The notes beneath the pieces were generated by a model. That model searched no databases. It was not told where the DNA came from and saw only the letters and a program-made list of their open reading frames with translations. From assembly GCA_965207735.1 (NCBI GenBank), contig OZ242296.1, forward strand, positions 2,208,001-2,272,000: DNA of 64,000 nucleotides, written 5' to 3'. This document shows positions 5,506 through 49,769 of this stretch, one piece after another (positions within the stretch are counted from its first letter, which is position 1; every line of letters starts with the position of its first letter). Origin of the DNA: Candidatus Versatilivorator sp. (GTDB taxonomy: Bacteria > Acidobacteriota > Terriglobia > Versatilivoradales > Versatilivoraceae). A program made the translations under genes and the position numbers.

Positions 5506-5619
5506 TCGGTTTCAGATTGACAGTGAACGGCTTAGACGGCAACTAACGGCCGGGGGTGCAATTGCGGGTTCCTCTCGCCTGGGGAGCGGTTCATCGGCCG
5601 GCGCCCATTGACGCCTGGG

Positions 5620-6485
5620 ATGCCTTTCCATGGGCTTACGCCCACGGCTACCTGCTGCCGCCGCCTTCGCGGCTCGGGGTTGGGGGCATCGTTTTCCATG
5701 GGCTTACGCCCACGGCTACCTGCTGGCGCCGCCTTCGCGGCTCCGCTGGAACCCCCCGGCTCGCGCCCGGGGGACAATTCATCGAATAGTCGCCGGCCCC
5801 CAGCTTGTGTCGCATTTCGGCCAGTGCGCCGATTGATTGGCTGGGTTCCAAGACTCCATTGCCTCTTCAAATCTATCCCCCTTACCCTCGGGCCTTCCTG
5901 CTGTCGCCGCCTTCGCGGCTCGGCTTTGGGGCATCTCTTTCCATGGGCTTACGCCCACGGCTACCTGCTGCCGCCGCTACGCGGCTCTATAGGAAGGCCT
6001 GCATATGTGGCGTTTTCTCATGTGAGACACACCAATCCTGGCTATGCCACGCCCCCAAATCCCCAACTCGGCGGGGAACAAGATCTGAATAGAACTTGTA
6101 GCCCAAGAGAACCCGACACGTCCGAAGCGTAGCGATCTTAAGACTTGATCCTCCCTCGGGCGCCAGCCCGAGGGCATCGAGTGGAGCGGCGAAGACGCGG
6201 CAGCAGGTAGCCGTGGGCGTAAGCCCATGGAACAGGGAGTCTTAGCGTCGAGCCGCGTAGGCGGCGACAGCAATCAGCCTTGGTGCTCGGTCTCGAACAG
6301 GTAGCTAGGATCAAAGTTGATCCGATGTTCTTTCAATAACTCCAAGGTTTTTTCCGAAACGTCTTGGTCCAATGATGGACGAATTCCCCCGGGGCGCACC
6401 CTCGGAGTTCGATCAGAGCGGCGAAGTCGTGGCAGCAGGTAGCCCCGGGCGGAAATCCCCGCTACCGAAGCCGCGTACGCGGCGA
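5620..6485. repeat. Repeat family A: GTAG-type REP cluster (GTAGCCGTGGGCGTAAGCCCATGG plus AGCCGCGAAGGCGGC hairpin)
   Basis: Copies near 5628, 5695 and 5940 in one orientation, near 6205 and a degenerate one near 6438 inverted; GTAG followed by an imperfect palindrome. Confidence 0.85.
6274..6377 (-). pseudogene. C-terminal remnant of an IS200/IS605-like (Y1/HUH) transposase
   Basis: Manual translation gives HHWTKTFRKK, a frameshift, then LELLKEHRINFDPSYLFETEHQG*, resembling the HHxxxTFxEE..LL..H.I.FD..YLF tail of these proteins; flanked by family A REPs. Confidence 0.65.
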
Positions 6486-9019: not shown

Positions 9020-10311
9020 TTGACTTACGGGACAGCGAGTTTCTCCCTACCGGCTCAACTGCGGGCTGGGCCCTCTCGCGACGCCGAGTTTGCCCCCCTC
9101 CGGCTCGACTGCGGGCGGAGCACTTTCGCGACGCCGAGTATGCCCCCCTCCGGCTCGACTGCGGGCGGAGCACTTTCGCGACGCCGAGTATGCCCCCCTC
9201 CGGCTCGACTGCGGGCTCCGCCCTCTCGCCGACTCCCCCTCAAGGGGGGAGTGATACTTGAGGCTTGCAGGGGGCGCCTTGCCCGATTCCTGGGCGGGAT
9301 GTAAACCATGTTCCCGGTCTAAAGTGTAAACGCCGTTCCCGGTTAGTACCCGGTATCACTCCCCCCTTGAGGGGGAGTCGCAGAAGTCGAGCCGAATGGC
9401 GAAGGCTGATGCGGTGGGGGGCCAGACGCCGGCGCAGCTTTGGGGCAACGCGTGCCCTTGAAGCAGGTCCGTCTCGCTTTGTGGCTCTGCGAGCACTGCC
9501 GATCGTCACTTACGGAACGCCGAGTCTGCCTCCCTCCGGATCGACTGCGGGCGGAGCACTTTCGCGACGCCGAGTATGCCCCCCTCCGGCTCGACTGCGG
9601 GCTCCGCCCTCTCGCCGACTCCCCCTCAAGGGGGGAGTGATACTTGAGGCTTGCAGGGGGCGCCTTGCCCGATTCCTGGGCGGGATGTAAACCATGTTCC
9701 CGGTCTAAAGTGTAAACGCCGTTCCCGGTTAGTACCCGGTATCACTCCCCCCTTGAGGGGGAGTCGCAGAAGTCGAGCCGAATGGCGAAGGCTGATGCGG
9801 TGGGGGTCAACCAACGCCTGGTACACTGTCTCCAGAACATCCATGCAGCTCTGAAACACCTCGTTGTTCCAAAAGCGCAATATTCTGTACCCCTTGCCCC
9901 GCAAATAATCATCGCGCTTCTCGTCGTAGGCGTGCCGTTCCCCATGCTGGCCGCCGTCCAGCTCGATCACCAACTTTCGGGACATGCAGGCGAAATCTAC
10001 GATGTAGGGACCTATCGGTTGCTGGCGCCGGAACTTGTAGCCGGCCAGTTGTTTCCTGCTCAGATAGTGCCACAGCAGGCCTTCTGCGTCGGTCTGTTCT
10101 TGGCGCAGAGTCTTTGCTCTTTCAAGTGTTTGCCGGGTGTAGGCGCGCATCATTCCCCCCACCTGTTGGTAGTCACTCTCGCGACGCCGCGTCTGCCCCC
10201 CTCCGGATCGACCGCGGGCTTCGCACTCTAGCGACGCCGAGTTTGCCCCCCTCCGGATCGACTGCGGGCTGCGCCCTTGTCTCTCCGACTCCCCCTCAAG
10301 GGGGGAGTGAT
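9020..10311. repeat. Repeat family B cluster (ACTCCCCCTCAAGGGGGGAGTGAT hairpins in alternating orientation) enclosing the DUF559 gene
   Basis: Hairpins near 9232, 9355, 9618, 9741 and 10288; 386-bp tandem period; 26-bp perfect inverted pair 9741-9766 / 10286-10311. Confidence 0.9.
9626..10153 (-). CDS. DUF559 / Vsr-like endonuclease; C-terminus reads on into the flanking repeat
   Basis: RAKTLRQEQTDAEGLLW..L...QLAGYKFRRQQPIGPYIVDFAC...LVIELDGGQH.......RDDYL...GYRILRFWNNEV; start at MMRAY, domain ends near 9805. Confidence 0.9.
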   Translation of the reverse strand: MMRAYTRQTLERAKTLRQEQTDAEGLLWHYLSRKQLAGYKFRRQQPIGPYIVDFACMSRKLVIELDGGQHGERHAYDEKRDDYLRGKGYRILRFWNNEVFQSCMDVLETVYQALVDPHRISLRHSARLLRLPLKGGVIPGTNRERRLHFRPGTWFTSRPGIGQGAPCKPQVSLPP

Positions 10312-14669: not shown

Positions 14670-14739
14670 GAGGAAGTGACACCCGGGAACGCGGGCGGGA
14701 CGCCCGCCCTAGCGCACTGCGCCACCGACGCAACGCTCA

Positions 14740-15570
14740 ATCTCACTTACGGGACGCCGCGTCTGCCCCCCTCCGGCTCGACTGCGGGCTCCGCCCTCTC
14801 GCCGACTCCCCCTCAAGGGGGGAGTGATACTCGAGGCCTGCATGGGGCGCCTTGCCGGATTCCCGGGTAGGGTGTAAACCATGTTCCCGGTTTAATGCAT
14901 CAACTCCGTTCCCTCTTCATAACACGGGATCACTCCCCCCTTGAGGGGGAGTCGCAGAAGTCGAGCCGAATGGCGAAGGCTGATGCGGTGGGGGGCGGTC
15001 GCCGGCGCGGCTTTGGGGCAACGCGTGCCGTTGAAGCAGGTCCGTCTCGCTTTGTGGCTCTGCGAGTACTGCCGATTGCCGCTTACGGGACGCCGAGTCT
15101 GCCCCCCTCCGGCTCGACTGCGGGCTCCGCCCTCTCGCCGACTCCCCCTCAAGGGGGGAGTGATACTCGAGGCCTGCATGGGGCGCCTTGCCGGATTCCC
15201 GGGTAGGGTGTAAACCATGTTCCCGGTTTAATGCATCAACTCCGTTCCCTCTTCATAACACGGGATCACTCCCCCCTTGAGGGGGAGTCGCAGAAGTCGA
15301 GCCGAATGGCGAAGGCTGATGCGGTGGGGGGCGGTCGCCGGCGCGGCTTTGGGGCAACGCGTGCCGTTGAAGCAGGTCCGTCTCGCTTTGTGGCTCTGCG
15401 AGTACTGCCGATCGTCACTTTCGGGACGCCGAGTCTGCCCCCTCCGGCTCGACTGCGGGCTCCGCCCTCTCGCCGACTCCCCCTCAAGGGGGGAGTGATA
15501 CTCGAGGCTTGCATGGGGCGCCTTGCCCGATTCGCGGGCGGGGTGTAAACCATGTTTCCGGGTTAATGTG
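14740..15570. repeat. Repeat family B tandem array (about 336-bp period)
   Basis: Near-identical units offset by 336 bp with hairpins near 14804, 14928, 15141, 15265 and 15476. Confidence 0.9.
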
Positions 15571-15586
15571 TGGACGATGCCCCCCC

Positions 15587-18626: not shown

Positions 18627-20130
18627 CCCCCCCGGGAGCGCGGGCGTCTCGCCCGCATTCGACTTGGCATGATGGAAACGATCCCCCTAAGGGTGAGTTG
18701 GGTGCGCTTTGCGAGGGAGTGGCCGGGGGCGGCAGACTGTTTGCAGGAATTCGGTTGCGGGCGGGACGCCCGCGTTCCCGGGGGGGCCATTCCTTTGCCG
18801 GTTTCCCGTGCGTCCATACTTCGTTGGCGACTTGGCGCACCGCACCTATTTCTTGGACCATTCTCGCTTTGGAGGCAATACGGCTCGTGAAGAAAGACCA
18901 CCCGGGAGCGCGGGCGTCTCGCCCGCACAAGGCCTGGCACGAACGTGGCTACCTCCCGCACTTCGATGAAGCGGGAACGGTGCAATTTCTCACTTTCCGC
19001 CTTGTTGACGCGGTTCCCGCCGCGACAGTCACCGCCTGGAAAACCGAACTGAAGCTCAGTGGCGGTGAAACGGCCGACGATCCCCGCTGTGCGCGCCTTC
19101 GCGGCCGAATCGAGCGTTTCGCCGACCAGGGACACGGCGCCTGCTGGCTGAAAGACGCCCGCGCCGCGCAGGTGGTCCAGGATGCGCTGCTGCATTTTGA
19201 CGGTGAGCGGTATCGGCTTCTGGCGTGGGTCATCATGCCCAATCACGTGCATGCGGTAATCGAGACACTGCCCGGCTTTCCCTTGGACGGGGTCATTCAC
19301 TCCTGGAAGTCGTTCACTGCCAAGCGGGCCAATCGACTCTTGGGCCGGACTGGCGCCTTCTGGATGGGAGACTACTTCGACCGCTATGTCCGCGATGAGG
19401 CACATCTCTGGGACGTAATGCGTTACATGGAAGAGAACCCCGCAAAGGCGGGTTTGGTGCGCTTCGCAAGGGAGTGGCCGTGGATGGGAGGCTGTCTACA
19501 GGAATAAGACCCACCCGGGAGCGCGGGCGTCTCGCCCGCACAAGGCCTGGCACCATGGAAACGATCCCCCTAAAGGTGAGTTGGGTGCGCTTTGCGAGGG
19601 AATGGCCGCGGACGGCAGGCGGCTTGCAGGAATAAGGTTGCGGGCGGGACGCCCACCCGGGAGCGCGGGCGTCTCGCCCGCACAAGGCTCGGCACCATGG
19701 AAACGATCCCCCTAAAGGTGAGTTGGGTGCGCTTTGCGAGGGAATGGCCGCGGACGGCAGGCGGCTTGCAGGAATAAGGTTGCGGGCGGGACGCCCACCC
19801 GGGAGCGCGGGCGTCTCGCCCGCACAAGGCTCGGCACGAAGGAAACGATCCCCCTGAAGGTGAGTTGGGTGCGCTTTGCGAGGGAATGGCCGTGGATGGG
19901 AGGCTGTTTGCAGGAATAGGGTTGCGGGCGGGACGCCCGCGTTCCCGGGGGTTTGGTGCACTATGCGAGGGAATGGCCGTGGATGGGAGGCTGTTTGCAG
20001 GAATAAGGTTGCGGGCGAGACGCCCGCGTTCCCGGGGGTTGGTGCACTGTGCGTGGGAATGGCCCTGGACCGCAGGCTGTTTGCAGGAATAAGGTTGCGG
20101 GCGGGACGCCCGCGCTCCCGGGGGGGCCTT
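18627..20130. repeat. Repeat family C: REP/REPIN-like cluster around the RAYT gene (CCCGGGAGCGCGGGCGTCTCGCCCGCA and inverse), 142-bp tandem units downstream
   Basis: Paired inverted REPs at about 18630/18757 and tandem units from about 19514 with 142-bp period. Confidence 0.9.
18887..19507 (+). CDS. REP-associated tyrosine transposase (RAYT, Y1/HUH family)
   Basis: WHERGYLPH, FLTFRL, WVIMPNHVH (HUH), WKSFTA, FW..DYFDRYVRD, Y.EENP.KAGL; GGAGG then GTG at 18887; flanked by REPs. Confidence 0.92.
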   Translation: MKKDHPGARASRPHKAWHERGYLPHFDEAGTVQFLTFRLVDAVPAATVTAWKTELKLSGGETADDPRCARLRGRIERFADQGHGACWLKDARAAQVVQDALLHFDGERYRLLAWVIMPNHVHAVIETLPGFPLDGVIHSWKSFTAKRANRLLGRTGAFWMGDYFDRYVRDEAHLWDVMRYMEENPAKAGLVRFAREWPWMGGCLQE

Positions 20131-20194: not shown

Positions 20195-22456
20195 TTACTC
20201 TTCTTCCGGCGAATCCGCCGGGCAGCCGGCGGACTCCGGATCCGAATCCGGAATCAACACGCGGATGCGGTGATTGACCCGGTCCGAGAGGTAAATCCTG
20301 CCGGTGCCGGCAATCGCCACGTCGGTGATGGCCCCCAGCCGGGCCTCGGTAGCGGGCACCCCGTCCCCGCTGTTCCCAATCATTCCCGTGCCCGCAATGG
20401 TGCTAATCGTCCCCGTGCAGGCATCCACCTTGCGGATTCTGAAGTTCACCGTGTCCGCGATGAACACGTTGCCCGAAGCGTCTACCGCCACGCCTTCGGG
20501 ATGCCCCAGCATGGCCTCGGCCGCCGGGCCTCCGTCCCCGCCATAACCGAACCGCCCCGTGCCCGCGATCGTGCTGATCGTCCCGGTCCCCGCCTCCACC
20601 TTGCGGATCCGGCTGTTCAACGTGTCCGCGATATAGACGTTGCCGGCGCCATCGACCGCCACACCGACCGGAAGCCTGAGCATGGCCTCGATCGCCGGGC
20701 CCCCGTCTCCGCCGTATCCATGACCGAGCCGTCCTCCGATGCCGGCAATTGTGCTGATCGTCCCCTTTGAAGCATCCACCTTGCGGATGCGGGAGCTGGC
20801 CCTGTCGGAGATGTAGAGGTTGCCGGCGATGTCGACCGCCACGTCATGAGGGTACGCCAGCATGGCCTCGGTCGCCGGGCCCCCGTCCCCGCCATAACCG
20901 AACCGCCCCGTGCCCGCGACCGTGCTGATCGTCCCGGTCCCCGCCTCCACCTTGCGGATCCGGTGATTGTAGGTGTCGGCGAGGTAGATGCTCCCGGAAT
21001 CATCCGCCGCAACGCCCACGGGGAACCCCAATCGGGCCCCGGTGGCCCGTTCGCCGTCGCCGCTGTCACCTCCTTCTCCCGTCCCCGCCCGGGTGGTGAT
21101 CCCGCCCGCCGAGAGGCTCGACTGGCGGATCCGGTTATAGCCGTAGTCCGCGGTGAAGATGTTGCCGAAGCCATCCACCGCCAGGCCGCGTGGTCTCGAG
21201 AGCTTGCCGGGCCCGGCCAGGGAATTATCCACCTGTCCCCCGCCGGCAATCGTGTCGATCGTGCCCGTCTCCGCGTCCAGCTTGCGGACCCGGTTATGGG
21301 CAGCGATATAGACGTTTCCGGCGCCGTCCACCGACACCCCCCTAACCAATCCGACTCGGGCCTCGGTCGCCGGGCCCCCGTCCCCGCTGTAACCGCGCTC
21401 CCCCACGCCCGCGATCGTTTGGATCGTCCCGGTGGCTCCATCCACCTTGCGGATGCGGTACCAGTCCGCGATGTAGAGATTGCCGGCGCCGTCCAACGCC
21501 ACTCCCTCGATTCGGCTCAGTCCAGCCTCGATGGCGGGTCCGCCGTCCCCGCTGAAACGAGCTTCTCCGTTCCCCGCGACGGTGCTGATCACGCCGCTGG
21601 CCCCATCCACCATGCGGATGCGGTCGTTCCCGTAATCCGCCACGTAGAGCTTTCCGGAATCATCCACCGCCAGGCCCCGCATCTCTCCCAACTGCGCCTC
21701 GGTGGCCGGGGCCCCGTCTCCGTCGAAGCCCCGCTCTCCGGTCCCTGCGACCGTACTGATCGATCCCGTGGCCCCATCCACTTTGCGGATGCGGAATCTG
21801 CCCCCGATGTAGAGGTTCCCGGCGGCATCCACCGCCAAGTCGCCGGCAAAGAGCCGGGCTTCGGTCGCCGGGCCCCCGTCCCCGCTGTAACCGCGTTTTC
21901 CCGTGCCGGCCACCACGCTGATGGTTCCCGTCATCGGGTCCACCTTGCGAACCACGGTGCCGGCCGGGATGTAGAGGTTGCCCTGACCGTCCACCGCCAC
22001 CGCGCCGGGGAATCCCACCTGAGCCTCCCTTGCCGGCCCACCGTCGCCGACCCGGCCCGGTTCGCCGGTGCCGGCGATCGTGTCAATCATTCCCGTCACC
22101 CCGTCCACCCTGCGGATGCGGTGGTGTCCCCAATCGGCGATGTAGAGATTGCCGCCGGAATCGACCGCCACCGCACGGGGGGACTCGAGCCAGGCCCGGG
22201 TGGCCGGGCTGCGGTCCCAGACGTCGTCGTTCCCCGCAACGGAGTCGAGCGTGTAGCCCGAGTGGGAAATGTCGATCGGTTCAACGACGTCTTGCCCGAG
22301 GAGCATGCAGGGAGCCAGGAGGAGGGCCAGTCCGGCGGCGACGGCAACCGTCATCTCCAGCAGGGCCCGGCCAAGCGTCCCACGGTCGCCTTCGGAGAGC
22401 CCATCTCCCGGATTGGTCAAGTGGATGGAGTGGCTACTGGAATCGGGGTAAATCAT
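20195..22456 (-). CDS. Exported NHL-repeat (teneurin-like beta-propeller) protein
   Basis: About 11 repeats of AVD..GNLYIAD..N.RIRKVD..TGTISTIAGTG..G..GDGGPATEA; hydrophobic signal-like segment near the N-terminus; start uncertain. Confidence 0.9.
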   Translation of the reverse strand: MIYPDSSSHSIHLTNPGDGLSEGDRGTLGRALLEMTVAVAAGLALLLAPCMLLGQDVVEPIDISHSGYTLDSVAGNDDVWDRSPATRAWLESPRAVAVDSGGNLYIADWGHHRIRRVDGVTGMIDTIAGTGEPGRVGDGGPAREAQVGFPGAVAVDGQGNLYIPAGTVVRKVDPMTGTISVVAGTGKRGYSGDGGPATEARLFAGDLAVDAAGNLYIGGRFRIRKVDGATGSISTVAGTGERGFDGDGAPATEAQLGEMRGLAVDDSGKLYVADYGNDRIRMVDGASGVISTVAGNGEARFSGDGGPAIEAGLSRIEGVALDGAGNLYIADWYRIRKVDGATGTIQTIAGVGERGYSGDGGPATEARVGLVRGVSVDGAGNVYIAAHNRVRKLDAETGTIDTIAGGGQVDNSLAGPGKLSRPRGLAVDGFGNIFTADYGYNRIRQSSLSAGGITTRAGTGEGGDSGDGERATGARLGFPVGVAADDSGSIYLADTYNHRIRKVEAGTGTISTVAGTGRFGYGGDGGPATEAMLAYPHDVAVDIAGNLYISDRASSRIRKVDASKGTISTIAGIGGRLGHGYGGDGGPAIEAMLRLPVGVAVDGAGNVYIADTLNSRIRKVEAGTGTISTIAGTGRFGYGGDGGPAAEAMLGHPEGVAVDASGNVFIADTVNFRIRKVDACTGTISTIAGTGMIGNSGDGVPATEARLGAITDVAIAGTGRIYLSDRVNHRIRVLIPDSDPESAGCPADSPEEE

Positions 22457-22702: not shown

Positions 22703-23045
22703 TTGATCCACCAGGGAACACGAAGGTCGGCGAAGGGTCACCAAGGAGTTGGAGGACGATCCAGAGGGGTCCGCCAAGGGTCGGGAGCGGCGAAGGAGCA
22801 AAGCCACCCGGGAGCGCGGGCGTCTCGCCCGCACAAGGCCCGGCACCATGGAAACGATCCCCTAAAGGTGAGTTGGGTGCGACTTGCGAGGGAATGGCCG
22901 TGGATTGCAGGCTGTTTGCAGGAATAAGGTTGCGGGCGGGACGCCCGCGCTCCCGGGGGGTTTGGCGCGACTTGCGAGGGAGTGGCCACGGACGGCAGGC
23001 TGTTTGCAGGAATAAGGTTGCGGGCGGGACGCCCGCGCTCCCGGG
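22703..23045. repeat. Family D unit followed by family C mini-element
   Basis: ATCCACCAGGGAACACGAAGG... then CCCGGGAGCGCGGGCGTCTCGCCCGCACAAGGCCCGGCACCATGGAAACG...TGCGGGCGGGACGCCCGCGCTCCCGG. Confidence 0.8.
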
Positions 23046-23155: not shown

Positions 23156-24316
23156 ATGGACACCACGCCGAACGAGCCGCACGACCTCGATAGTCCCGGC
23201 AAGAGCCAGACGGTATCCATCGTGGTGCCGACCTTTCGCGAGGCGGCCAACATTCCCCGCCTGGCCGAGCGCATTCAGGCCGCCCTCTCCGACAGCGGAC
23301 TTGCCTGGGAGCTGCTGCTGGTCGACGACAACTCGGAGGACGGTAGCGAGGCCGTGGCGGCGGAGCTGGCGGGCCGCCTGCCCGTGCGCCTGGTGACGCG
23401 CCGCCGACCGCCTCGGGACCTGTCGCTCTCCGTGATCGAGGGAATCCGGCTCAGCCGCTTCGACCGGCTGGTGGTGATGGATGCCGATCTGTCCCATCCG
23501 CCCGAGCGCATCGCCGATCTGCTGGCCGCCCTCGAGGCCGATTGCGACATGGTGATCGGCAGCCGCTACGCGCCGGGCGGCCTCATCGATCGGACCTGGA
23601 GCCCCTGGCGCTTGCTGAATTCCCGCCTGGCAACCTCATTGGCGCTTCCCCTGGTCGGCTGCTCCGATCCCATGGCCGGGTTCTTCGCGACCGACCGCCG
23701 CCGGCTACCGGACCTTCAGAGCTTGCAACCCATCGGCTACAAGATCGCCCTGGAGCTGATGGTGCGCGGGAAATTGCGGGTCAAGGAACTGCCCATCGAC
23801 TTCCGCGACCGCAGCCTGGGCTCCAGCAAGATGAACTGGAGGCAGCAGCTCAACTACCTACGTCACCTGTACCGTCTCTACCGGTGCAAGTTCGGCGGGC
23901 CGACCCGGCTTCTCTGCTTCGGGCTGGTAGGCGCCAGCGGCCTGGTGATCGATGTCGCTTGCTACCTCGGTCTGCAGTGGATCGGCCTCGAGCACCGCCT
24001 GGCGCGTTTGCTGTCCTTCTGGCCGGCCGTCACCTGGAACTGGCGCCTCAACCGGAGCTTCACCTTCGGCGAGCGCCCTCGGGAGCCCCGCGTGCACCAA
24101 TGGGGAAAGTTCGTGGCCGGCAGCCTGGTGGGGCTCAGCGTGAACGTGGGCGGCTACACGGTCTTGACCAGCCTGGTCGACTTCTTCGCCTCTCATCGAC
24201 TGCTGGCGCTCCTGTTGGGCGTCCTCCTGGGCACCGTCGTCAACTTTCTGCTTGCAAACCTCTATGTCTATCGCCTGCACTCGGAAAGGCCTGGAATCGA
24301 GGCTTCAGGGAAATGA
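23156..24316 (+). CDS. Polyprenol-phosphate mannose synthase-like GT2 fused to a GtrA-like membrane domain
   Basis: SIVVPTFRE, VDDNSEDG, VMDADLSHPP, GSRY..GG, DPMAGFF, GYKI.LE (DPM1/Ppm1-like); C-terminal FGLVGASG...WN..LNR.FTF GtrA pattern. Confidence 0.88.
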   Translation: MDTTPNEPHDLDSPGKSQTVSIVVPTFREAANIPRLAERIQAALSDSGLAWELLLVDDNSEDGSEAVAAELAGRLPVRLVTRRRPPRDLSLSVIEGIRLSRFDRLVVMDADLSHPPERIADLLAALEADCDMVIGSRYAPGGLIDRTWSPWRLLNSRLATSLALPLVGCSDPMAGFFATDRRRLPDLQSLQPIGYKIALELMVRGKLRVKELPIDFRDRSLGSSKMNWRQQLNYLRHLYRLYRCKFGGPTRLLCFGLVGASGLVIDVACYLGLQWIGLEHRLARLLSFWPAVTWNWRLNRSFTFGERPREPRVHQWGKFVAGSLVGLSVNVGGYTVLTSLVDFFASHRLLALLLGVLLGTVVNFLLANLYVYRLHSERPGIEASGK

Positions 24317-25980
24317 CCAAGCGGAAGAAAGCAAGAAGAAACCGGCCCCGAGCGCGACGGGCCGCCGCGCAGCCCGCCTTGCCACGGATTCGGGCGGCGC
24401 TCGACATCCTGCTGCATCCAAGGCAGACCGACCGGCCCTGGAAATATCTGCCGCTGGTGCTGGCGCTGGCATTTGCGGTGCGCTCCGCGGTGGCTTTGTC
24501 GGGTGACTTCGTTCTGCACCCCGACGAGATCATGCAGTACCTGGAGCCGGCACACCGCCTGGTTTTCGGCAGCGGCGTCACCTACTGGGAATACTTCTAC
24601 GGCGCGCGCTCCTGGCTGGTGCCCGGAACGGTGGCCGGCGTCCTCATGCTGTTCGACGCCGTCGGCCTGGGTCAGCCGTCCTGGTACGTGGGCGGCGTCA
24701 AGCTGCTGTTCTGCGCCATCTCGCTGACGATTCCGGCCGGCATGTACTTCTTTGCCCGACGCCACTTCAGCGAAACCGCAGGGAGAGTAGCCTTGCTGGC
24801 GGGCGCCTTCTGGTACGAACTGGCCGGCTTCGCCCACAAACCCATGACCGAGTTCGTAGCCACGGCTCCGCTGGTGGCGCTGCTGGCGCTCTCCGTGCGG
24901 CCCTCCCCGGCAAACGCCCGCACGGTCTGGATGGCGGCCTTTCTCGGCGTCCTGACGGCAGCCATACGGTTGCAGTACGCACCGGTTGCGCTGGTGCTGC
25001 TGGGAATCGTGTTTCTGCGAACCGGGAAGAGGATTCAGCTCACACTGGCCGGGGCCGGGTTTGCCGTCGCCTTCGGCCTGTTCGACGCTATCTCGTGGAA
25101 CGGCGGCCTGTTCCACTCCTACGTCACCAACATCCGCTTCAACCTCGTTCTCGGTGCGGCGCGCACCGGAGAGAGTCCGGCCTACCAGTTCCTGTTGTGG
25201 CTCGCCATCGCGGGCCTGGGGCTGAGCCTGCTTTGCCTGGCGATGGCCTTGCGCCGGGTGCGGCGCTACGGATTCCTGCTGGGGCTGATCGCCCTGGTCC
25301 TGCTGCTGCATTCCCTGCAAGCCCACAAGGAGTACCGTTTCATCTTTGCCGTCATTCCGCTCTGGATCCTGATCGGCGCCGACCTGGCGGCGCGGTTGGC
25401 GGCGCGCGGGGACGGGTCGCGCCGGTTTGCCGGACTTGCAGCCGCCGGGTTCGCCGCCGTTTCCCTGGCAGGGATCCTGAATGGACTGCCCTACCAGGAC
25501 CGGGTGTACCGAGCCTGGTCGAGGGAGACCGGAGTGGTGGGCTTCGTCCGCAATCAGGACCCCATCTTCCCCGCTTATCGCTATCTTGCCCGCGCGCCCG
25601 GGGTGACCGGGGTATGGCAGGTCGACCGCGCCTATTACAATCTCCCGGGATACTACTACCTGCACCGCAAGATACCCTTCTACGACAGGGGCACGGGGAC
25701 CAGCCTCAAAGGGAATGTGGAAGCGGTTTCGTCCCGGGTCAGTCACATCGTATCCGCGGACCCCGGCTTTTCCGTTCCCGGATACTCCCTGGACCAGACA
25801 TTCGGCGAAGTTCGCATCTTGCGCCGCGACGAGAACGAACCGCCCGTCCGACCCTGGATCGACTACGCTCCCATCATGGTGTCCAATCGCTTTAGACGGA
25901 TTATCAGGCGGATAGATCCGGACAGCCCTTCTCCGCCGGCCAATTTCGGGATCCGATTTGCAGACCGGGAAAGGCCGTAG
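24313..25980 (+). CDS. GT22 (PIG-B/ALG9-like) membrane mannosyltransferase
   Basis: HPDEIMQYLEPAH...G...WEY...ARSW and HKEYRFIF motifs; about ten TM helices; ATGA overlap with the upstream gene. Confidence 0.82.
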   Translation: MTKRKKARRNRPRARRAAAQPALPRIRAALDILLHPRQTDRPWKYLPLVLALAFAVRSAVALSGDFVLHPDEIMQYLEPAHRLVFGSGVTYWEYFYGARSWLVPGTVAGVLMLFDAVGLGQPSWYVGGVKLLFCAISLTIPAGMYFFARRHFSETAGRVALLAGAFWYELAGFAHKPMTEFVATAPLVALLALSVRPSPANARTVWMAAFLGVLTAAIRLQYAPVALVLLGIVFLRTGKRIQLTLAGAGFAVAFGLFDAISWNGGLFHSYVTNIRFNLVLGAARTGESPAYQFLLWLAIAGLGLSLLCLAMALRRVRRYGFLLGLIALVLLLHSLQAHKEYRFIFAVIPLWILIGADLAARLAARGDGSRRFAGLAAAGFAAVSLAGILNGLPYQDRVYRAWSRETGVVGFVRNQDPIFPAYRYLARAPGVTGVWQVDRAYYNLPGYYYLHRKIPFYDRGTGTSLKGNVEAVSSRVSHIVSADPGFSVPGYSLDQTFGEVRILRRDENEPPVRPWIDYAPIMVSNRFRRIIRRIDPDSPSPPANFGIRFADRERP

Positions 25981-25983
25981 CCG

Positions 25984-28149
25984 ATGGCGCAGAGAAACAA
26001 GACGAGACCGAGCAAGCGCAAGCGATCGGCCTTGAGGGCAGCCTCCTCGCCCAAGGCAAGTGCCCCCGGCACAACCGAAACCGGAAGGGCTCAATCGTCC
26101 CCGGTTCCTCGCGAGTCCAGGCGGTTGTTTGACCGGTTCTCGGGCCGGGGTGCGCTGGCCGCCCTGGCGCTGGGCCTGCTGGCGGGGGTGTGCTACCTGC
26201 CGGCAATGCTTTGGGGCGGCTTTGTCTGGGATGACTTCATCTGGTTTCAGTCCCGGGCGGTGCTGGAGTGGTCCGGCCTCGGCGACATCTGGTCCTGGCC
26301 GTCGCGCATTCACCGAGAGGTGCACTACTGGCCTCTGACCTATACCACCTTTTGGCTGGAACACAAGATGTGGGGCCTGGCTCCGGCCGGCTATCACATC
26401 GTCAACGTGCTGCTGCACCTGCTGAACTCCCTGCTGGTGTGGCGCCTGCTGCTGCGCCTGGCCGTGCCCGGGGCCTGGGTTGCGGCCGCCGTGTTCGCCG
26501 TGCATCCGACGCACGTGGAGTCGGTGGCCTGGATCATCGAGCGCAAGGACGTGCTTTCGGGTCTTTTCTACCTGGCTGCCGTGCTGGTCTGGCTGCGCTT
26601 CCTGGAAAAACCGCGACCCTGGCGCTACGGCCTGGCGCTGCTGCTGTTCGCGGCGGGCCTGTTGAGCAAGTCCATGGTGGTGACGCTGCCGGCGGCCTTG
26701 CTGATTGTCCAGTGGTGGAGGAACGGCCGCATCGCGGTTCGGGATCTGCGGCGCATGGCCCCGTTCTTCCTGGTGGCTCTGCTCATCACGGCACTGGATC
26801 TCTACTCGGTCGGTTCGAAGTCCAGTCTGCTGGACTACTCGCTTCCCGAGAAGATGCTCATCGCGTCGCGGGCCTTGTGGTTCTACGCGGGCAAACTGGT
26901 CTGGCCGGCCGATCTGGCCATCATCTACCCGCGGTGGGACATCAGCCTCGGGGAACCCTGGGCTTGGCTCTACCTGGCCGGGGCGGGTGCACTGGCAGCC
27001 ACGCTGTGGTCGATGCGCCACAGGATTGGGCGCGGTCCGCTGGCCGGAGCCTTGTTCTTCGCAGTGACGCTGTCGCCGGTGCTGGGCTTCGTGAATCACG
27101 GTTACATGGACTACTCCCTGGTGGCCGACCGCTTTCAATACCTGGCCGGCATCGGGGTCATGGCAGTCCTCATCGGCGCCGCCGTACAGGGCGCCGGCCG
27201 GCTGCAGGGCCGATTGAAGTGGGGGGCGGCGGGTCTTCTGGTGGTGGTGCTGGCGCTTCTTGGAACCATGACCTGGAGCCAGGCGGGAATCTACCGGGAC
27301 AAGATCACCTTCTTCAGCCACATCGTCTCTCTCAATCCGGAGGCGCGGAACGCTCACTTCAATCTCAGCCAGGCCTTGGGCAGGGCAGGCCGTACCGAGG
27401 AAGCCCTGGCCCCCGCCCGGATGGCCGTGGAACAGCGCCCGGATGATGCCAGAGCCCTTTGCATGCTCGGTTCCGTACTGATTCACATGGAACGGTTCGC
27501 CGAGGCCGAGGAGACCTTGCGCCGCGCCCTGGAGATCGATCCCGACCACAAGTGCAGTCGCCGGGAAATGGCCCATATGCTACGGATGCAAGGACGCCGT
27601 GAGGAAGCGCTCGACGCCTATCGCGCGCTGCTTGAAATCTACCCCAACTACGCCCTGGCCTATGCCTACGTCGGCCGTGTGCTGGTTCAGCTCCAGCAAT
27701 ACGAAGAGGCCGTCAACCCCCTGAGCAAGGCCCTGGCAATGACCAGGGCGGCATCGTCCGTGACGGCGGAATTGCCCAAACCCGTGTCTGTTCATGTGCT
27801 CCTGGGCACGGCCTTGCGGGAGCTGGGGCGGACCCGGGCGGCGGAGGATCACTTCCGGCAAGCCCTGCAGCTCGACCCGCGCAACAGGGAGGCGCTCGAC
27901 CAGGTCGCCGCGGCGCATTTCAGGCGGAAGCGTTTCCAGGAGGCGCTCGATCTCTATCGAACCCTGTTGGAGATCGCTCCCGACGCGGCATCCGCTCACG
28001 CCGACATCGGCGTGACCCTCTACTACCTGGACCGAACCGAAGAAGCCATCCGGAGCCTGGAGCGGGCTCTTGCCCTGGACCCGTCCCTGGAAACGGCCAG
28101 AAACAATCTCGAAGAGATCCGCAAGAGAATCCGGCAACCGGAGGAATAG
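25984..28149 (+). CDS. TMTC-like GT-C membrane protein with C-terminal TPRs, copy 1
   Basis: FVWDD acidic motif after TM1, YWPLT, YH.VNV.LH, FAVHP.HVESVAWI.ERKD, ADRFQYL, TPR array. Confidence 0.85.
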   Translation: MAQRNKTRPSKRKRSALRAASSPKASAPGTTETGRAQSSPVPRESRRLFDRFSGRGALAALALGLLAGVCYLPAMLWGGFVWDDFIWFQSRAVLEWSGLGDIWSWPSRIHREVHYWPLTYTTFWLEHKMWGLAPAGYHIVNVLLHLLNSLLVWRLLLRLAVPGAWVAAAVFAVHPTHVESVAWIIERKDVLSGLFYLAAVLVWLRFLEKPRPWRYGLALLLFAAGLLSKSMVVTLPAALLIVQWWRNGRIAVRDLRRMAPFFLVALLITALDLYSVGSKSSLLDYSLPEKMLIASRALWFYAGKLVWPADLAIIYPRWDISLGEPWAWLYLAGAGALAATLWSMRHRIGRGPLAGALFFAVTLSPVLGFVNHGYMDYSLVADRFQYLAGIGVMAVLIGAAVQGAGRLQGRLKWGAAGLLVVVLALLGTMTWSQAGIYRDKITFFSHIVSLNPEARNAHFNLSQALGRAGRTEEALAPARMAVEQRPDDARALCMLGSVLIHMERFAEAEETLRRALEIDPDHKCSRREMAHMLRMQGRREEALDAYRALLEIYPNYALAYAYVGRVLVQLQQYEEAVNPLSKALAMTRAASSVTAELPKPVSVHVLLGTALRELGRTRAAEDHFRQALQLDPRNREALDQVAAAHFRRKRFQEALDLYRTLLEIAPDAASAHADIGVTLYYLDRTEEAIRSLERALALDPSLETARNNLEEIRKRIRQPEE

Positions 28150-28180
28150 TGGCTCGAAGAAGCGCGAACAGAGAGCAAAG

Positions 28181-28337
28181 ACCCCCCGGGAGCGCGGGCG
28201 TCCCGCCTGCACAAGGCCCGGCACCAAGGAAGAGAACTCCGTAGTGGCGGTTTCGGTGCGCTTTGCAAGGGAGTGGCGTGGGTGGGAGGCAGTTTGCAGG
28301 AAAAAGGATGCGGGCGGGAGGCCCGCCCCCCCGGGGG
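28181..28337. repeat. Family C mini-element between the TMTC paralogs
   Basis: REP, CACAAGGCCCGGCAC, RAYT-3'-like spacer, inverted REP. Confidence 0.8.
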
Positions 28338-28352
28338 AAGAAGGGAAACAGA

Positions 28353-30548
28353 ATGGTGAAGAGAAAGAAAAAGAGACGCACTCAGCGCAGGCGCTTGGAC
28401 TCGGGGCCGGCTTCCTCGCCTCAAGCCATGGTCTCCGTCAAAGCCGGGTCCGCAAAAACGCAGTCGTCCTCCGCTCCCCGGCAGGCGACCGGGTTTTTCG
28501 ACGGAATCTCGCGCCGGGATGCGCCGGCCGCCCTGGCTCTGGGCCTGCTGGCGGGGGTCTGCTACCTGCCCGCGATGCTTTGGGGCGGCTTTGTCTGGGA
28601 TGACTTCATCTGGTCTCAGTCCCGGGCGGTCCGAGAGTGGTCCGGTCTCGGCGCCATCTGGACCTGGCCAAATCTGATTGAGAAAGAGGCGCACTACTGG
28701 CCGCTGACCTATACCACCTTCTGGCTGGAACACAAGATGTGGGGACTCGAGCCGGCCGGCTATCACGTCGTCAACGTGCTGCTGCACCTGCTCAACACCC
28801 TGCTGGTGTGGCGCCTGCTGCTGCGTTTGGCCGTGCCCGGGGCCTGGATTGCAGCCGCCGTGTTTGCCGTGCACCCGCTGCACGTGGAGTCGGTGGCCTG
28901 GATTTTCGAGCGCAAGGACGTGCTATCCGGTCTTTTCTACCTGGCTGCCGTGCTGGTGTGGCTGCGCTTCCTGGAAAAACCGCGACCCTGGCGCTACGGC
29001 CTGGCGCTGCTGCTGTTCGCGGCGGGCCTGTTGAGCAAGTCCATGGTGGTGACGCTGCCGGCGGCCTTGCTGATTGTCCAGTGGTGGAGGAACGGCCGCA
29101 TCGCGGTTCGGGATCTGCAGCGGGTGGCGCCGTTCTTCCTGGTGGCGCTGCTCATCACGGCACTGGATCTCTACTCGGTCGGTTCGAAGTCCAGTCTGCT
29201 GGACTACTCGCTTCCCGAGAAGATGCTCATCGCGTCGCGGGCCTTGTGGTTCTACGCGGGCAAGCTGGCCTGGCCAACCGATCTGGCCGTCATCTACCCG
29301 CGGTGGGACATCAGCCTCGGGGACCCCTGGGCATGGCTCTACCTGGCCGGGGCGGCGGCGCTGGCGGCAACGCTGTGGTTCCTGCGCCACAGGATTGGGC
29401 GCGGTCCGCTGGCCGGGGCGCTGTTCTTTGCGGTGACGCTGTCGCCGGTGCTGGGCTTCGTGAATCACGGCTACATGCAGTACTCCTTTGTGGCCGATCG
29501 CTTTCAATACCTGGCCGGCATCGGGGTGATGGCGGTCGTCATCGGCGCCGCCGTACAGGGCGCCGGCCGGCTGCCGGGCCGATTGAAGTCGGGGGCGGCG
29601 GGTCTACTGGTGGTGGTGCTGGCGCTTCTTGGAACCATGACCTGGCGCCAGGCGGAAATCTACCGGGACGCCGTCACCTTCTTCAGCCACATCGCCTCTC
29701 TCAACCCCGAGGCGCGGAGCGCTCACTACAATCTCAGCATCCATTTGACCAGGGCAGGCCGTCCGGAGGAAGCCCTGGCCGCCGCCCGGATGGCCGTGGA
29801 AAACCGCCCTCAGGCCAAAGACCTTTCCACCCTCGGCGCCGCGCTGATTGACATGGAACAGTACGTCGAGGCCGAGGAGGTCTTGCGCCGCGCCCTGGAG
29901 ATTGATTCGAGCCACAAGAATACTCTCCGGCAAATGGCCAGAATGCTCAGGGAACAAGTACGCTTCGAGGAAGCGCTGGAGGCATACCGCCGCTTGCTCG
30001 AAATCGACCCCGAGGACGCACTTGCCCACGGCTACACGGGCAATATACTGTTCAACCTACATCGACCCGACGAAGCCATCGAGCCCCTGAACAGGGCCCT
30101 GACACTCACCCGGGCCGCACGGTCGCTGACACCGGACTTGCCGACGCCGGAGGCTCTGCATGTCCTGCTGGGCAAGGCGTCGTGGGAAGCGGGCCGACTC
30201 CAAGTGGGAGAGGAGCACTTCCGGCAAGCTCTGCAACTCAATTCGCGCAATACAGAGGCACTCGAGCATATCGCCGTTTCGCATTTCAGGCAGAATCGTT
30301 TCCAGGAGGCGCTCGATCTGTATCGAACCCTGTTGGAGATCGATCCCGACAAGGCGTCCACCTACTCCAACCTGGGCGCGGCCTTGTATCAACTGGGCCG
30401 GTTCGAAGAAGCACGCCAAAGCCTGGAGCGCGCGCTCGCCCTGGACCCTACCCTGGAAATGGCCAGATCCAACCTCGAAAAGGTACGCAAGACCGTGCCA
30501 AAGCCGGGGGAAAGCGCGTTCACCCCGATGGCGCCCGCAAGGAAATGA
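28353..30548 (+). CDS. TMTC-like GT-C membrane protein with C-terminal TPRs, copy 2
   Basis: Same motifs as copy 1 and near-identical membrane domain; start re-called at MVKRKK. Confidence 0.85.
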   Translation: MVKRKKKRRTQRRRLDSGPASSPQAMVSVKAGSAKTQSSSAPRQATGFFDGISRRDAPAALALGLLAGVCYLPAMLWGGFVWDDFIWSQSRAVREWSGLGAIWTWPNLIEKEAHYWPLTYTTFWLEHKMWGLEPAGYHVVNVLLHLLNTLLVWRLLLRLAVPGAWIAAAVFAVHPLHVESVAWIFERKDVLSGLFYLAAVLVWLRFLEKPRPWRYGLALLLFAAGLLSKSMVVTLPAALLIVQWWRNGRIAVRDLQRVAPFFLVALLITALDLYSVGSKSSLLDYSLPEKMLIASRALWFYAGKLAWPTDLAVIYPRWDISLGDPWAWLYLAGAAALAATLWFLRHRIGRGPLAGALFFAVTLSPVLGFVNHGYMQYSFVADRFQYLAGIGVMAVVIGAAVQGAGRLPGRLKSGAAGLLVVVLALLGTMTWRQAEIYRDAVTFFSHIASLNPEARSAHYNLSIHLTRAGRPEEALAAARMAVENRPQAKDLSTLGAALIDMEQYVEAEEVLRRALEIDSSHKNTLRQMARMLREQVRFEEALEAYRRLLEIDPEDALAHGYTGNILFNLHRPDEAIEPLNRALTLTRAARSLTPDLPTPEALHVLLGKASWEAGRLQVGEEHFRQALQLNSRNTEALEHIAVSHFRQNRFQEALDLYRTLLEIDPDKASTYSNLGAALYQLGRFEEARQSLERALALDPTLEMARSNLEKVRKTVPKPGESAFTPMAPARK

Positions 30549-30551
30549 GTT

Positions 30552-31503
30552 GTCCACGAAGGGGGTCCGTGCAGAACCGTGACGGGGTCAAAAGACTTAT
30601 CCACGAAGGGGGTCCGAGAAGAATCGTGACGGGGTCAAAAGGCTTATCCACGAAGGGGGTCCGAGAAGAATCGTGACGGGGGTTAAAAGATTTCCACGAA
30701 GGGGCACGAAGGTCCACGAAGGGGCACTAAGGCGGCGGAGGTGGATCGGGAGGGGTGCCAGGGGTCGGGTAGGGAAAAGAAAAAGATGTCCACGAAGGGA
30801 GTCCGAGAAGAATCGTGACGGGGTTAACAGATTTCCACGAAGGGGCACGAAGGGGCACTAAGGGGTTGGAGGTGGATCGGGAGGGGGGTGCCAGAGTTCG
30901 GGTAGGAAAAGGAAAAAGATTTCCACGAAGGGAGTCTATGCAGAACCGTGACAGGGGAAAAGGCTTATCCACGAAGGGAGTCCGTGCAGAACCGTGACGG
31001 GGGAAAAGACTTTTCCACGAAGGGGCACGAAGGACCACGAAGGGGCACTAAGGCGTTGGGGGTGGATCGGGAGGGGGTTGCCAGGGTTCGGGTAGGAAAT
31101 GGAAAAAGACATCCACGAAGGGAGTCATTGCAGAACCGTGACGGGGTCAAAAGACTTATCCACGAAGGGAGTCTATGCAGAACCGTGACGGGGGGGAAAG
31201 GCTTATCCACGAAGGGGCACGAAGGTCCACGAAGGGGCACTAAGGCGGCGGAGGTGGATCGGGAGGGGGGTGCCAAGGGTCGGGAAGGGAAAGGAAAAAG
31301 ATTTCCACGAAGGGAGTCTTTGCAAAACCGTGACGGGGAGAAAAGGCTTATCCACGAAGGGGCACGAAGGACCACGAAGGGGCACTAAGGCGTTGGGGGT
31401 GGATCGAGAGGGAGTTGCCAAGGGTCAGGAAGGAAAAGGGAAAAGAAATCCACGAAGGGAGTCCATGCAGAACCCTGACGGGGTCAAAAGACTTATCCAC
31501 GAA
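30552..31503 (+). repeat. Repeat family D array, purine-rich orientation (TCCACGAAGGGGCACGAAGG...CCGTGACGGGG)
   Basis: Many CCACGAAGGG and CGTGACGGGG units starting about 5 bp after the TMTC copy 2 stop. Confidence 0.9.
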
Positions 31504-31552
31504 ACAGTATATTGCCGACCTGGTTTGCTTTGAACAGGTTGAGGATTTCCTT

Positions 31553-32231
31553 TAACCCCCATCACGATTCTTCTCCGAGCCCTCCGTGGAAATCTTTTTC
31601 CCGTTTCCCCCCTTCCCAATCCCTGGCAACCCCCTCTCGAATTACCTCCGACGCCTTCGTGCCCCTTCGTGGTCCTTCGTGCCCCTTCGTGGAAATCTGT
31701 TAACGCCGCCACGATTCTTCTCGGACCCCCTTCGTGGAAATCCCTTCACCCCCGTCACGATTCTTCTCCGAACCCTCCGTGGACATCTTTTCCCCTTTTC
31801 ACCCCTTCCCGAACCCTGGCAACCCCCTCTCGAATTACCTCCGATGCCTTAGTGCCCCTTCGTGGTCCTTCGTGCCCGTTCGTGGAAATCTGTTAACCCC
31901 CGTCACGATTCCCCTCCGAACCCTCCGTGGAAATCATTTTCCCTTTTCTCCCCTTCTCGATCCGTGGCAACCCCCTCTCGAATTACCTCCGATGCCTTAG
32001 TGCCCCTTCGTGGTCCTTCGTGCCCCTTCGTGGAAATCTGTTAACCCCCGTCACGATTCCCCTCCGAACCCTCCGTGGAAATCTTTTTCCCTTTTCTCCC
32101 CTTCCCGATCCGTGGCAACCCCCTCTCGAATTACCTCCGACGCCTTAGTGCCCCTTCGTGGTCCTTCGTGCCCCTTCGTGGAAATCTGTTAACCCCCGTC
32201 ACGATTCCCCTCCGGACCCCCTTCGTGGATT
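31553..32231 (-). repeat. Repeat family D array, inverted orientation, 148-bp period
   Basis: CCCCTTCGTGGTCCTTCGTGCCCCTTCGTGGA units with 148-bp spacing; ends a few bp from the cyclase stop. Confidence 0.9.
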
Positions 32232-33409: not shown

Positions 33410-33692
33410 TGCTGACGCCGCCTTCGCGGCTCGGGGTTTTGCATCTTTTCCCATGGGCTTACGCCCACGGCTACCTGCTGACGCCGCCTTCGCGGCTCGG
33501 GGTTGCATCCCTTCCCATGGGCTTACGCCCACGGCTACCTGCTGGCGCCGCCTTCGCGGCTCGGGGGTTTTCATCTCTTCCCATGGGCTTACGCCCACGG
33601 CTACCTGCTGACGCCGCCTTCGCGGCTCAGGGTTTTGCATCCCTTCCCATGGGCTTACGCCCACGGCTACCTGCTGGCGCGGCTTCGCCGCT
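33410..33692. repeat. Family A REP tandem array (four copies)
   Basis: CCCATGGGCTTACGCCCACGGCTACCTGCTG repeated at about 65-bp spacing. Confidence 0.9.
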
Positions 33693-33704
33693 CGACTGGT
33701 GTCC

Positions 33705-34300
33705 CTCCAACCCCTTCGTGTTCCTTGGTGGATCTTCGTGCCCCTTCGTCGACAAATCTTTTTGCCCCGTCGCGGTTCTTTGTGGATTCCCGCCTTGAAA
33801 GACGGGGGGCGGTGTTCACCCCCCACCGCATCAGCCTTCGCCGTTCGGCTCGGCTTCTGCGACTCCCCCTCAAGGGGGGAGTGATTATCTTTGCAGTGAA
33901 GTGGGCGGGATAGGCAAAGCCGTGCCAGGCCTTGTGCGGGCGGGACGCCCGCGCAAGACCTGGCACAATGAAAGAGAATCCGGTAAAGGCGGGTCTGGTG
34001 CGCTTCCAACGGGCGTGCCGTGGATGGGAGGCTGTTTGCAGGAATAAGGATGCGGGCGGGACGCCCGCGCTCCCGGGGGCTCATTTCATGGCGTCGCTGG
34101 GGAAAAAGACTCGCTTGTGCGGCGCTTCCCGGGCGGGTAAACAGCCAGAGCGAAGGGACGAGATTGCCGGACTATACCGTAGCGCAACTTTTGGCGTGCA
34201 AACGGATATTGGCGCCGTTTGTGGTTTGCGGAAGTGGGAGGGGTGGCGGGCCTTGTGCGGGCGGGACGCCCGCGTTCCCGGGGGGATCCCTTCGTGGATG
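33705..34300. repeat. Stacked family D, family B and family C elements
   Basis: CCCCTTCGTG units near 33710-33790, hairpin ACTCCCCCTCAAGGGGGGAGT near 33861, RAYT-derived mini-element near 33920-34080. Confidence 0.75.
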
Positions 34301-35550: not shown

Positions 35551-35641
35551 ATCGTCTCATGACAGCACTATTCGTCTGAAGGGAGGAGCGGTGCGGGATT
35601 GGCACGCCGGAGCCCTTGGTGGACCCGCTTCGTGGATCGGC

Positions 35642-41212: not shown

Positions 41213-41214
41213 GT

Positions 41215-41880: not shown

Positions 41881-41914
41881 GGGGATCACAACCCTTCCCG
41901 GTAATCAATTCCGC

Positions 41915-42139: not shown

Positions 42140-42169
42140 CTCTCATGGCCCACCTGCCAAGGCTAGAAA

Positions 42170-49690: not shown

Positions 49691-49769
49691 CTAGATCGCT
49701 CGAACGGGGAAAAAGTCGAAAGAGGGGGCAAGAAAGGACGACGAACCGCAAATGGACACGAAAAAAAGA

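Follow-up and report, generated by a model that had tools for sequence, protein, structure and literature searches.

REPIN-like mini-elements as probable internal-deletion derivatives of a RAYT element in an acidobacterial genus

The present study revealed that the REPIN-like mini-elements (minis) clustered around a RAYT gene in a 64,000-nt stretch of DNA (the window; G000:C1:2208001-2272000) are composed of the two ends of this gene, joined between inverted REPs. Judging from the compared sequences, their spacers almost certainly derive from the RAYT gene by deletion, and the gene itself has very probably been relocated within the genus. The interpretation that we prefer, and regard as likely, is that the minis arose from a REP>RAYT<REP element by internal deletion and were likely spread by RAYT in trans, and that the full gene changed and multiplied its site, probably through cutting and joining by RAYT combined with host recombination.

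The genome containing the window (G000) is a single contig of 5.26 Mb with 61.9% G+C, in which the window RAYT (Table 1) is the sole match to the Pfam profile PF01797 (Y1_Tnp; 28.9 bits, cut-off 23). The protein scores one bit below the cut-off of the NCBIfam model NF047646, REP_Tyr_transpos (79 versus 80 bits), and its sole clear match in the PDB is TnpA-REP of E. coli (4ER8, E 8.8e-5). Both the HuH motif (NHVH, H120/H122, codons 19244-19252) and the catalytic motif Y-x3-NP (YMEENP; Tyr180, TAC codon at 19424-19426) are present, i.e. the signature of RAYT/TnpA-REP proteins (class 2 TnpA-Y1) as defined in the available part of PMC6006769. In contrast, the Y-x3-Q motif of TnpA-IS200 (IS200/IS605) is absent, and the score against NF033573 is 20.4 bits (cut-off 55). 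The HuH-Y distance is 58, compared with medians of 110, 88 and 82 for Quentin 2.3, 2.4 and 2.6 in the accessible data, and an insertion of ~50 aa after the first strand has no counterpart in Table 1 of PMC6006769. Within the compared parts of Table S1 of that paper, the REP nearest to that of the window stands in a subclass 2.6 row. The dN/dS value of 0.16 among seven orthologous RAYTs at the window site indicates purifying selection.

The GTG start is supported by an ATG at the equivalent position in the relatives G004 and G006, which places the left REP within the 5' end of the reading frame, as the earlier note had proposed on condition that this start is right. The leader resembles (70–78% over 61–106 nt) those of the locus C RAYTs (see below) in G005, G009 and G011; blastn gave no match to the leaders of G005 locus B or G002 locus C, where the likeness was recognized by eye. 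A promoter scan of the leader detected no sigma-70 site. Downstream, the gene is followed by a direct REP and not by an inverted one, its own right REP having been lost. The REP-RAYT-REP unit described earlier is therefore incomplete in the window, but intact in G005 and G011.

Table 1. Positions of the RAYT gene and of its mini-elements in the window.
Feature	Position	Strand	Remarks
Class A mini upstream of RAYT	18634..18779	+	REP 18634-18657, 98-nt RAYT-derived spacer, inverted REP 18756-18779
RAYT leader outside the REP	18780..18886	+	GGAGG at 18871-18875; homologous leaders precede locus C RAYTs and minis
RAYT/TnpA-REP gene	18887..19507	+	206 aa, GTG start
Left REP inside the 5' end of the ORF	18904..18927	+	codons 6-14; GGGAGC foot, 7-bp stem, 3-nt loop
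5' RAYT piece kept in class A minis	18928..18943	+	13-16 nt
3' RAYT piece kept in classes A, B, D and D'	19427..19507	+	starts at the ATG directly after the catalytic Tyr codon
Two tandem 142-bp class A units	19517..19800	+	right REP truncated (~15/24 nt), fused to the next left REP
Complete class A mini	19801..19946	+	
Two 3'-only units	19951..20119	+	~60 nt of the RAYT 3' end + inverted REP; 86-87-bp period
Class A mini and one 3'-only unit (22960-23042)	22810..23042	+	before the glycosyltransferase gene
Class A mini	28188..28332	+	
Class A mini	33936..34074	+	left REP is a fused back-to-back palindrome

In the window units, the first 13–16 nt of the RAYT after the REP are joined to its last ~84 nt (75–85% identical). 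The units starting at 18634, 19517, 19659, 19801, 22810, 28188 and 33936 match the RAYT at 7–13 of 13 nt in the 5' piece and at 61–69 of 81 nt in the 3' piece, and within the window the minis sit between ORFs. The sequences described in the earlier note were found where it had placed them, with some corrections: of the 142-bp units said to lie between inverted REPs only that at 19801 is complete, and the copy reported at about 33950 starts at 33936, from a fused palindrome. The segment 19795-19952 folds at -45 kcal/mol (calculated without a shuffled control), its arms being fully paired and its spacer weakly structured. Short-read contigs of run X1, possibly from the source sample, match 18629-18782 and 18911-19539 without a difference, and confirm the RAYT, the upstream unit and the 160-nt junction; none spans the array. 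Every joint indicated by the mapped reads could be attributed either to further copies of the repeats or to the class D element.

A gene for an NHL-repeat protein (20195-22456) lies between the RAYT array and the glycosyltransferase gene, with mini arrays on both sides; among the seven genomes with RAYT at this locus (locus A), it is found there only in G000 and G002. Minis are also located at the gene boundaries of the region 23156-30548, which contains the glycosyltransferase gene, a membrane glycosyltransferase-like gene and tandem TMTC-like TPR genes, and the copy number of this gene set differs between relatives. Modular repeats of the CCACGAAGGG type occupy positions 30506-32230, 34915-35552 and 40771-42356, and occur in L035 as well. 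In G011 these repeats bracket a GxxExxY-like gene directly after the DHH gene, and they may themselves derive by deletion from another gene cassette.

The 24-nt REP is present in 111 copies in G000 (up to 3 mismatches). A pattern search of this genome gave 106 matches and the reversed control 0. In the 111-copy profile the foot of the REP is CCCGGGAGC and not the GT[AG]G of group 2/3 RAYTs, and the outer flank shows no sharp boundary, its conservation fading over ~15 nt. At 75 of 123 REP-like sites in G000 the inner flank corresponded to a RAYT end above the threshold (the 99th percentile of 1500 random positions). The 123 sites comprised (i) 45 of the 5' type, the gene itself included, (ii) 30 of the 3' type, (iii) 11 fused palindromes, and (iv) 37 of neither kind. 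The number of REPs ranges from 85 to 656 across 13 genomes of the genus, and is 12 in G001. Genome G009 has 544 REPs, yet the only RAYT found in it by the query carries two stop codons. The left REP is degenerate at locus A in G002, G004, G006 and G013. Two other repeat families were observed in the window: GTAG-footed REPs (5587-5749, 33410-33700, 62165-63134), to which no Y1 transposase could be assigned in G000, and a second abundant family of palindromic repeats with a long self-complementary arm (9173-9820, 14713-15576, 41194-41864, 49706-56261).

Adjacent REPs in inverted orientation form 30 pairs in G000 (29 distinct), and 13 of them enclose 96–98 nt, which is the anatomy of REPINs. In a two-piece alignment to the RAYT all 29 distinct spacers exceeded the best of 12 shuffles, two spacers of 87 nt doing so marginally. 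The claim that the spacers consist of two RAYT ends between inverted REPs thus fits every distinct spacer, two of them marginally, and, as in MITEs and PATEs, an internal deletion has left both ends in place.

The junctions were numbered on the intact G005 element, which has 583 nt between its REPs and the ATG following the Tyr codon at index 499. We distinguished (i) class A (96–98 nt; left break 13–16, right break 498–501; AT microhomology), (ii) class B (121 nt; 38–41 and 499–502; ATG), (iii) class D (156–160 nt; 75–76 and 498–499), (iv) class D' (151–152 nt; 68 and 499), (v) class E (141–142 nt; 76–78 and 514–516; GT), (vi) an older, more diverged lineage starting with TGGCACAGC (299–301, 243–247, 221–232 and 151–153 nt; other breaks), and (vii) a 5'-only class (289–302 nt; other breaks). 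The microhomologies between the joined RAYT ends are 0–3 nt long. The single common junction GGCAC/CATGGAA, predicted for the alignment of all units to the RAYT, was therefore rejected in favour of several classes. GGCAC/CATGG has likely arisen later, from GGCACG[AT]GG, so that the junction is better read as GGCACG[AT]GGAAG; the class A junction has GAT or AAT in relatives where G000 has GAA. Some of these classes are likely nested deletions of others. The fused palindromes with zero spacer are embedded in the long flanks that also surround class A minis, and they resemble the final stage of the deletion series. A class E mini inverted behind a RAYT leader was detected in L029:9430-9620, i.e. 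its spacer is flipped between the inverted REPs.

The class A junction pattern gave 70 matches in G002, 9 in G000, and 0–6 in the other 22 of the 24 genomes searched; these counts are lower bounds, because the pattern is strict and finds only 9 of the 16 known G000 copies. At the protein level, the older TGGCACAGC lineage was matched 89 times in G005, 91 times in G009 and 34 times in G011, mostly to RAYT residues 4–77 among the matches listed. In the relatives, the minis near loci B and C, and partly near locus A, evolve in concert with the local RAYT, but this is not the case in G000. The minis of G000 are not closest to its own RAYT, and thus are not fresh products.

A full-length RAYT (84–100% aa) was detected in 9 of the 14 genomes of the genus, and 4 of the 5 lacking it are assemblies of 310–770 contigs. 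The gene occupies three loci: (i) locus A, the window site, between DHH phosphoesterase and glycosyltransferase genes, where the right REP is truncated or lost, in the window as elsewhere, (ii) locus B, between rfbC and an aldolase-like gene, with two tandem intact REP>RAYT<REP copies in G005, and (iii) locus C, between genes for an SHC-like cyclase and a prenyltransferase-like protein, with RAYT in G005, G009 and G011 (one late TAG stop in G005, TGA and TAG in G009). At loci B and C the gene is bracketed by two inverted REPs. With four copies in G005 and one in G000, it is neither single-copy nor restricted to one locus, as a domesticated gene would be, in this genus. Nor is it dispersed in many near-identical copies like IS200/IS605 elements: only the tandem B pair reaches 95.5% identity, A versus B copies showing 92%. 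In the RAYT tree the A and B copies group apart from the C copies (support 99/99). Locus A of G011 is uninformative, since G011 and G001 group together in the DHH tree but not in that of locus C.

Analysis of the same loci in other genomes revealed deleted counterparts of the gene. Locus C consists of a leader and a mini (class D, D' or E) in G000, G002, G013, G008 (by eye), G004 and G006, and is without an insert in the outgroup G001. Locus A of G009 contains the leader, the GTG and class A minis instead of the gene, and at locus B of this genome minis fill both slots that hold RAYTs in the sister G005 (flanks 87–94% identical). The two B genes of G005 differ by 4.5% (dS 0.12), compared with 0.03–0.04 for the flanking genes of G005 versus G009. 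As the divergence of the pair is about equal to or above that of the flanks, the RAYT genes were, on this evidence, probably there first and G009 lost the cores. The earlier proposal that these REPINs are deletion derivatives of a RAYT element is thus supported by (i) ends kept in gene order, (ii) microhomologies at the junctions, (iii) intact REP>RAYT<REP elements in G005 and G011 (in G009 with stops), and (iv) full and deleted alleles in orthologous slots.

Locus C (L028, L029, L031, L108-L116; G000:C1:824207-826650) was additionally recognized as a hotspot for cargo between REP units: a vapBC-like pair in G005, G006, G009 and G011 (named by reading the translation), the 3' part of a DUF1156-type methylase plus ~23 kb of other DNA in G013 (similar in G008), another toxin-antitoxin-like pair in G004, and an unrelated DDE-type IS in G000. 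A locus-B-like cassette (mini-trailer-leader-mini) without RAYT was found at a fourth site in G009 (L044; G000:C1:2319005-2320260).

Outside the genus, distant homologues keep the same type of REP, often directly before WHxRG and, inverted, after the C-terminal motif. Motifs of HmaB/DUF1156 methylases were found near RAYT at 9 of 72 distant loci. At 7 of these 9 loci, and in L203 and L014, RAYT, accompanied by REPs, is read in frame within the methylase ORF, at three positions (L126, L129, L132, L136, L150, L157, L179, L203, L014). Site 1 measures 221–346 aa when filled and 26–36 aa when unfilled, and site 2 259–297 versus 31–60 aa. The best match outside the genus (68% aa) is such a methylase insert, starting with the same REP-HKAWH. 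These inserts support mobility of the RAYT family over long times. Lone REPs were also seen in frame at other loops of HmaB/DUF1156 methylase genes. Within the genus, DUF1156 genes are present in G000, G005, G009 and G011. The RAYT motifs were located at 53 of the 72 distant loci, and among the matches listed no RAYT-derived minis occur in the flanks of these 53; two flank matches are second RAYT inserts within the same methylase gene. Short diverged pieces can escape this search as well as the protein and DNA search of G015-G018 and G031-G035, which gave no amplified joined minis and, as the sole piece of this kind, one RAYT 3' fragment with a REP in G033. Amplified minis made of RAYT ends were found in this genus only.

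Two segments outside the REPs recur at all three loci, namely a leader of ~100 nt, which carries the start codon and the ribosome-binding site, and a trailer of ~50 nt. Remnants of the locus C vapB-like gene (a name again taken from the translation) recur at loci A and B. The dispersed class A copies have >300 bp of flanking repeat DNA in common, so that another element or recombination could carry them. In 40 stretches of G002, G005 and G009 compared with G000 we found no clean empty/filled pair, precise ends or target motif for dispersed minis; the orthologous intergenic regions were replaced wholesale or flanked by other repeats. Since leader and trailer recur outside the REPs, the minis share flanking repeats, and no precise ends were found, the moving unit is larger and looser than REP-to-REP; leader and trailer travel along, and a fixed REP-to-REP unit was rejected. 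The earlier view that the RAYT unit is or was mobile is upheld as relocation (three loci, the empty G001 site, the HmaB inserts), but not for the unit that had been assumed. Exchange between minis and the ends of the gene by recombination clearly plays a part, and some of the slots are accounted for by gene conversion. It is worth mentioning that mosaic composite repeats of several hundred bases, in which a class A mini or a palindrome with zero spacer is included, were also observed (G000:C1 3043697, 3184928, 3308021, 4107756, 4282061; L068-L082), and that they are amplified in G002.

According to the mechanism that we propose, the inverted REPs would pair on single-stranded DNA, and replication would slip at microhomologies of 0–5 nt, removing the core. 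Such deletions would often be nested (from 160 to 121 or 98 nt, and from 301 to 244 or 152 nt). The HUH enzyme would bind the REP hairpin, cut some distance away and rejoin the strands, and because of this distance minis would move with neighbouring repeat DNA and without fixed ends. As minis have 40–115 nt in common with each end of the gene, recombination or gene conversion could put them in the place of a neighbouring RAYT, G009 being an example, and they may act as landing pads for the leader-RAYT-trailer unit. With the start codon and ribosome-binding site outside the left REP, a working gene would result only from moves that take the leader along, and this need would hold the RAYT copy number low. 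The numbers of minis differ strongly between species.

The strongest competing explanation, which we consider unlikely although it deserves attention, accepts the deletion origin but holds that RAYT never catalyses its own move: circles arising from tandem mini-leader-RAYT-mini arrays, or conversion by host recombination, would have relocated the gene, and minis would be passengers of the mosaic repeats. Each RAYT at locus B comes after a mini, or after another RAYT with its trailer and leader, as expected from circle integration, and these copies combine an A-type ORF with a C-type start region. Slot 2 of G009 locus B has the junction variant of the neighbouring slot, and both the long flanks common to dispersed minis and the many REPs of G009, which lacks an intact RAYT, are consistent with this explanation. 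However, the first arrival at locus C had no visible homology pad, as there is no mini upstream of the leader and the locus is empty in G001; the inserts at three HmaB positions likewise need a non-homologous step, and the gene is under purifying selection.

A somewhat less probable alternative concerns the deletions themselves, which RAYT could make by cutting its own gene at a preferred site (TAC/ATG) just 3' of the catalytic Tyr codon and linking this end to breaks made close to the left REP. The right break (498–502) is indeed common to classes A, B, D and D', although their left breaks differ, nested slippage accounts for this only partly, and a C/A cut is known for one TnpA-REP (PMC8266576, in the part available). 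On the other hand, the left breaks have no dinucleotide in common, nested slippage that starts from D, at AT, ATG and CCT, can explain classes A, B and D', and at one and the same position in locus C class D is replaced by class B; the other classes break elsewhere. A small hairpin at 19439-19452 (window 19427-19455) lies just 3' of the common right break and might stall replication and focus deletions.

We regard it as very improbable, and largely refuted, that the ends of the gene were captured one by one into BIME-like arrays without deletion of one element. The 3'-only units of the window (Table 1) and of locus C in relatives would fit such captures, four of which, at the 3' end, are reported in the accessible text of PMC2817692; but the 5' and 3' pieces lie in gene order between correctly facing REPs, the spacer lengths grade up to 301 nt, and minis occur behind the gene's own leader, in slots filled by the full gene in sister genomes. 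The reverse direction, in which the gene took its ends from a pre-existing repeat, is suggested by the REP inside the reading frame and was refuted, the retained pieces encoding the motifs WHxRGYLPH and xENPVKAGL..W-W, which are conserved in homologues from many phyla and align to E. coli TnpA-REP, so that the direction is from gene to mini.

The preferred reading, i.e. internal deletion of a RAYT element whose full gene has itself changed its site, can be compared with the REPIN-RAYT systems described so far (PMC2817692, PMC3116915, PMC3337134, PMC5581495, PMC6006769, 10.1101/2021.07.10.451892; here and below as far as the accessible parts of these sources go). Both share (i) an HUH/Y1 enzyme with Y-x3-NP, (ii) a gene bracketed by inverted REPs and under purifying selection, (iii) 100–650 REPs per genome, with doublets of fixed spacer lengths and tandem arrays beside the gene, and (iv) fused single palindromes, which resemble 'double-foot' REPs. 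In contrast, the spacers analysed here are the two ends of the gene itself, the foot is GGGAGC instead of GT[AG]G, and the gene occurs at three loci with up to four copies per genome, whereas the available texts state no sign of multi-copy mobility or relocation of RAYTs. Thus, PMC2817692 describes RAYTs flanked by inverted REPs with neither multiple copies nor relocation, PMC5581495 few recent duplications, PMC6006769 no evidence of class 2 mobility, and 10.1101/2021.07.10.451892 no evidence of RAYT self-transposition, each in the part accessible. The overlap of the REP with the ORF start also differs, but an overlap at the 5' end has a precedent (PMC3733652, Fig. 8 legend, a paper reporting REPs that overlap gene ends), and REPs are described inside subclass 2.4 genes in the available sections of PMC6006769, along with double-foot REPs formed by central deletion. 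In the accessible part of PMC8266576, TnpA-REPs of other groups cut 5' or 3' of the REP and also at distant sites.

In the available portions of PMC3337134 and PMC3116915 the origin of REPINs is called unknown, with duplicated flanking REPs proposed as their source, and fusion or duplication of flanking palindromes is suggested in PMC3337134, PMC2817692, PMC8266576 and 10.1101/2021.07.10.451892, the last of which includes a MITE stage in its scheme. The 3' captures of Nunvar 2010 (PMC2817692) are alike in that a coding 3' end and its downstream REP are reused as an inter-REP segment beside the gene, but in the present genus both ends are joined, there are many junction classes, and the derivatives have been amplified and lie scattered over the whole genome. 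PATEs of Haloquadratum (PMC3119063, in the part available) arise by core deletion of IS605-type transposons; they too are non-autonomous, palindrome-ended elements, some of which keep coding remnants, with variable sequence beyond the palindrome. Their parent differs from that found here, a class 2 TnpA-REP without tnpB and with inverted REPs, for which neither a terminal oligonucleotide nor a target motif was detected. The minis resemble MITEs in being short, inverted-ended deletion derivatives with size classes and lineage-specific bursts; unlike MITEs, they show no target duplication or precise ends, the enzyme is of the HUH and not the DDE type, and the parent gene is conserved and mostly single-copy. 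The system is a REPIN by anatomy and a PATE/MITE family of a RAYT in operation, departing from the single copy, the fixed locus and the GTAG foot. We found no paper that describes either the relocation of a RAYT or REPINs built of its two ends, although Additional file 4 of Nunvar 2010, the supplements of Di Nocera 2013 and subscription papers may hold related cases.

A broader and more tentative generalization, which we consider possible rather than probable, is that this RAYT subfamily constitutes an autonomous single-strand transposon (leader-REP-RAYT-REP-trailer), still moving itself, inserted in frame in defence methylases of other phyla, carrying toxin-antitoxin and restriction-modification cargo between REPs, and spawning REPINs by core deletion; classical REPINs might then be old MITE-like derivatives with spacers decayed beyond recognition. 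The data of this genus do not show that REPINs of the GTAG type, in Pseudomonas or E. coli, had the same origin. The genus does show the stages next to one another (the element in its intact form, deletions of graded length, spacers that have decayed, palindromes with zero spacer, families that have been amplified, and full and deleted alleles at the same sites), and it gives defined substrates for testing the self-movement of RAYT and the birth of REPINs. It thus offers a case of repeat birth from an enzyme family described as immobile, in which the element is likely still semi-mobile.
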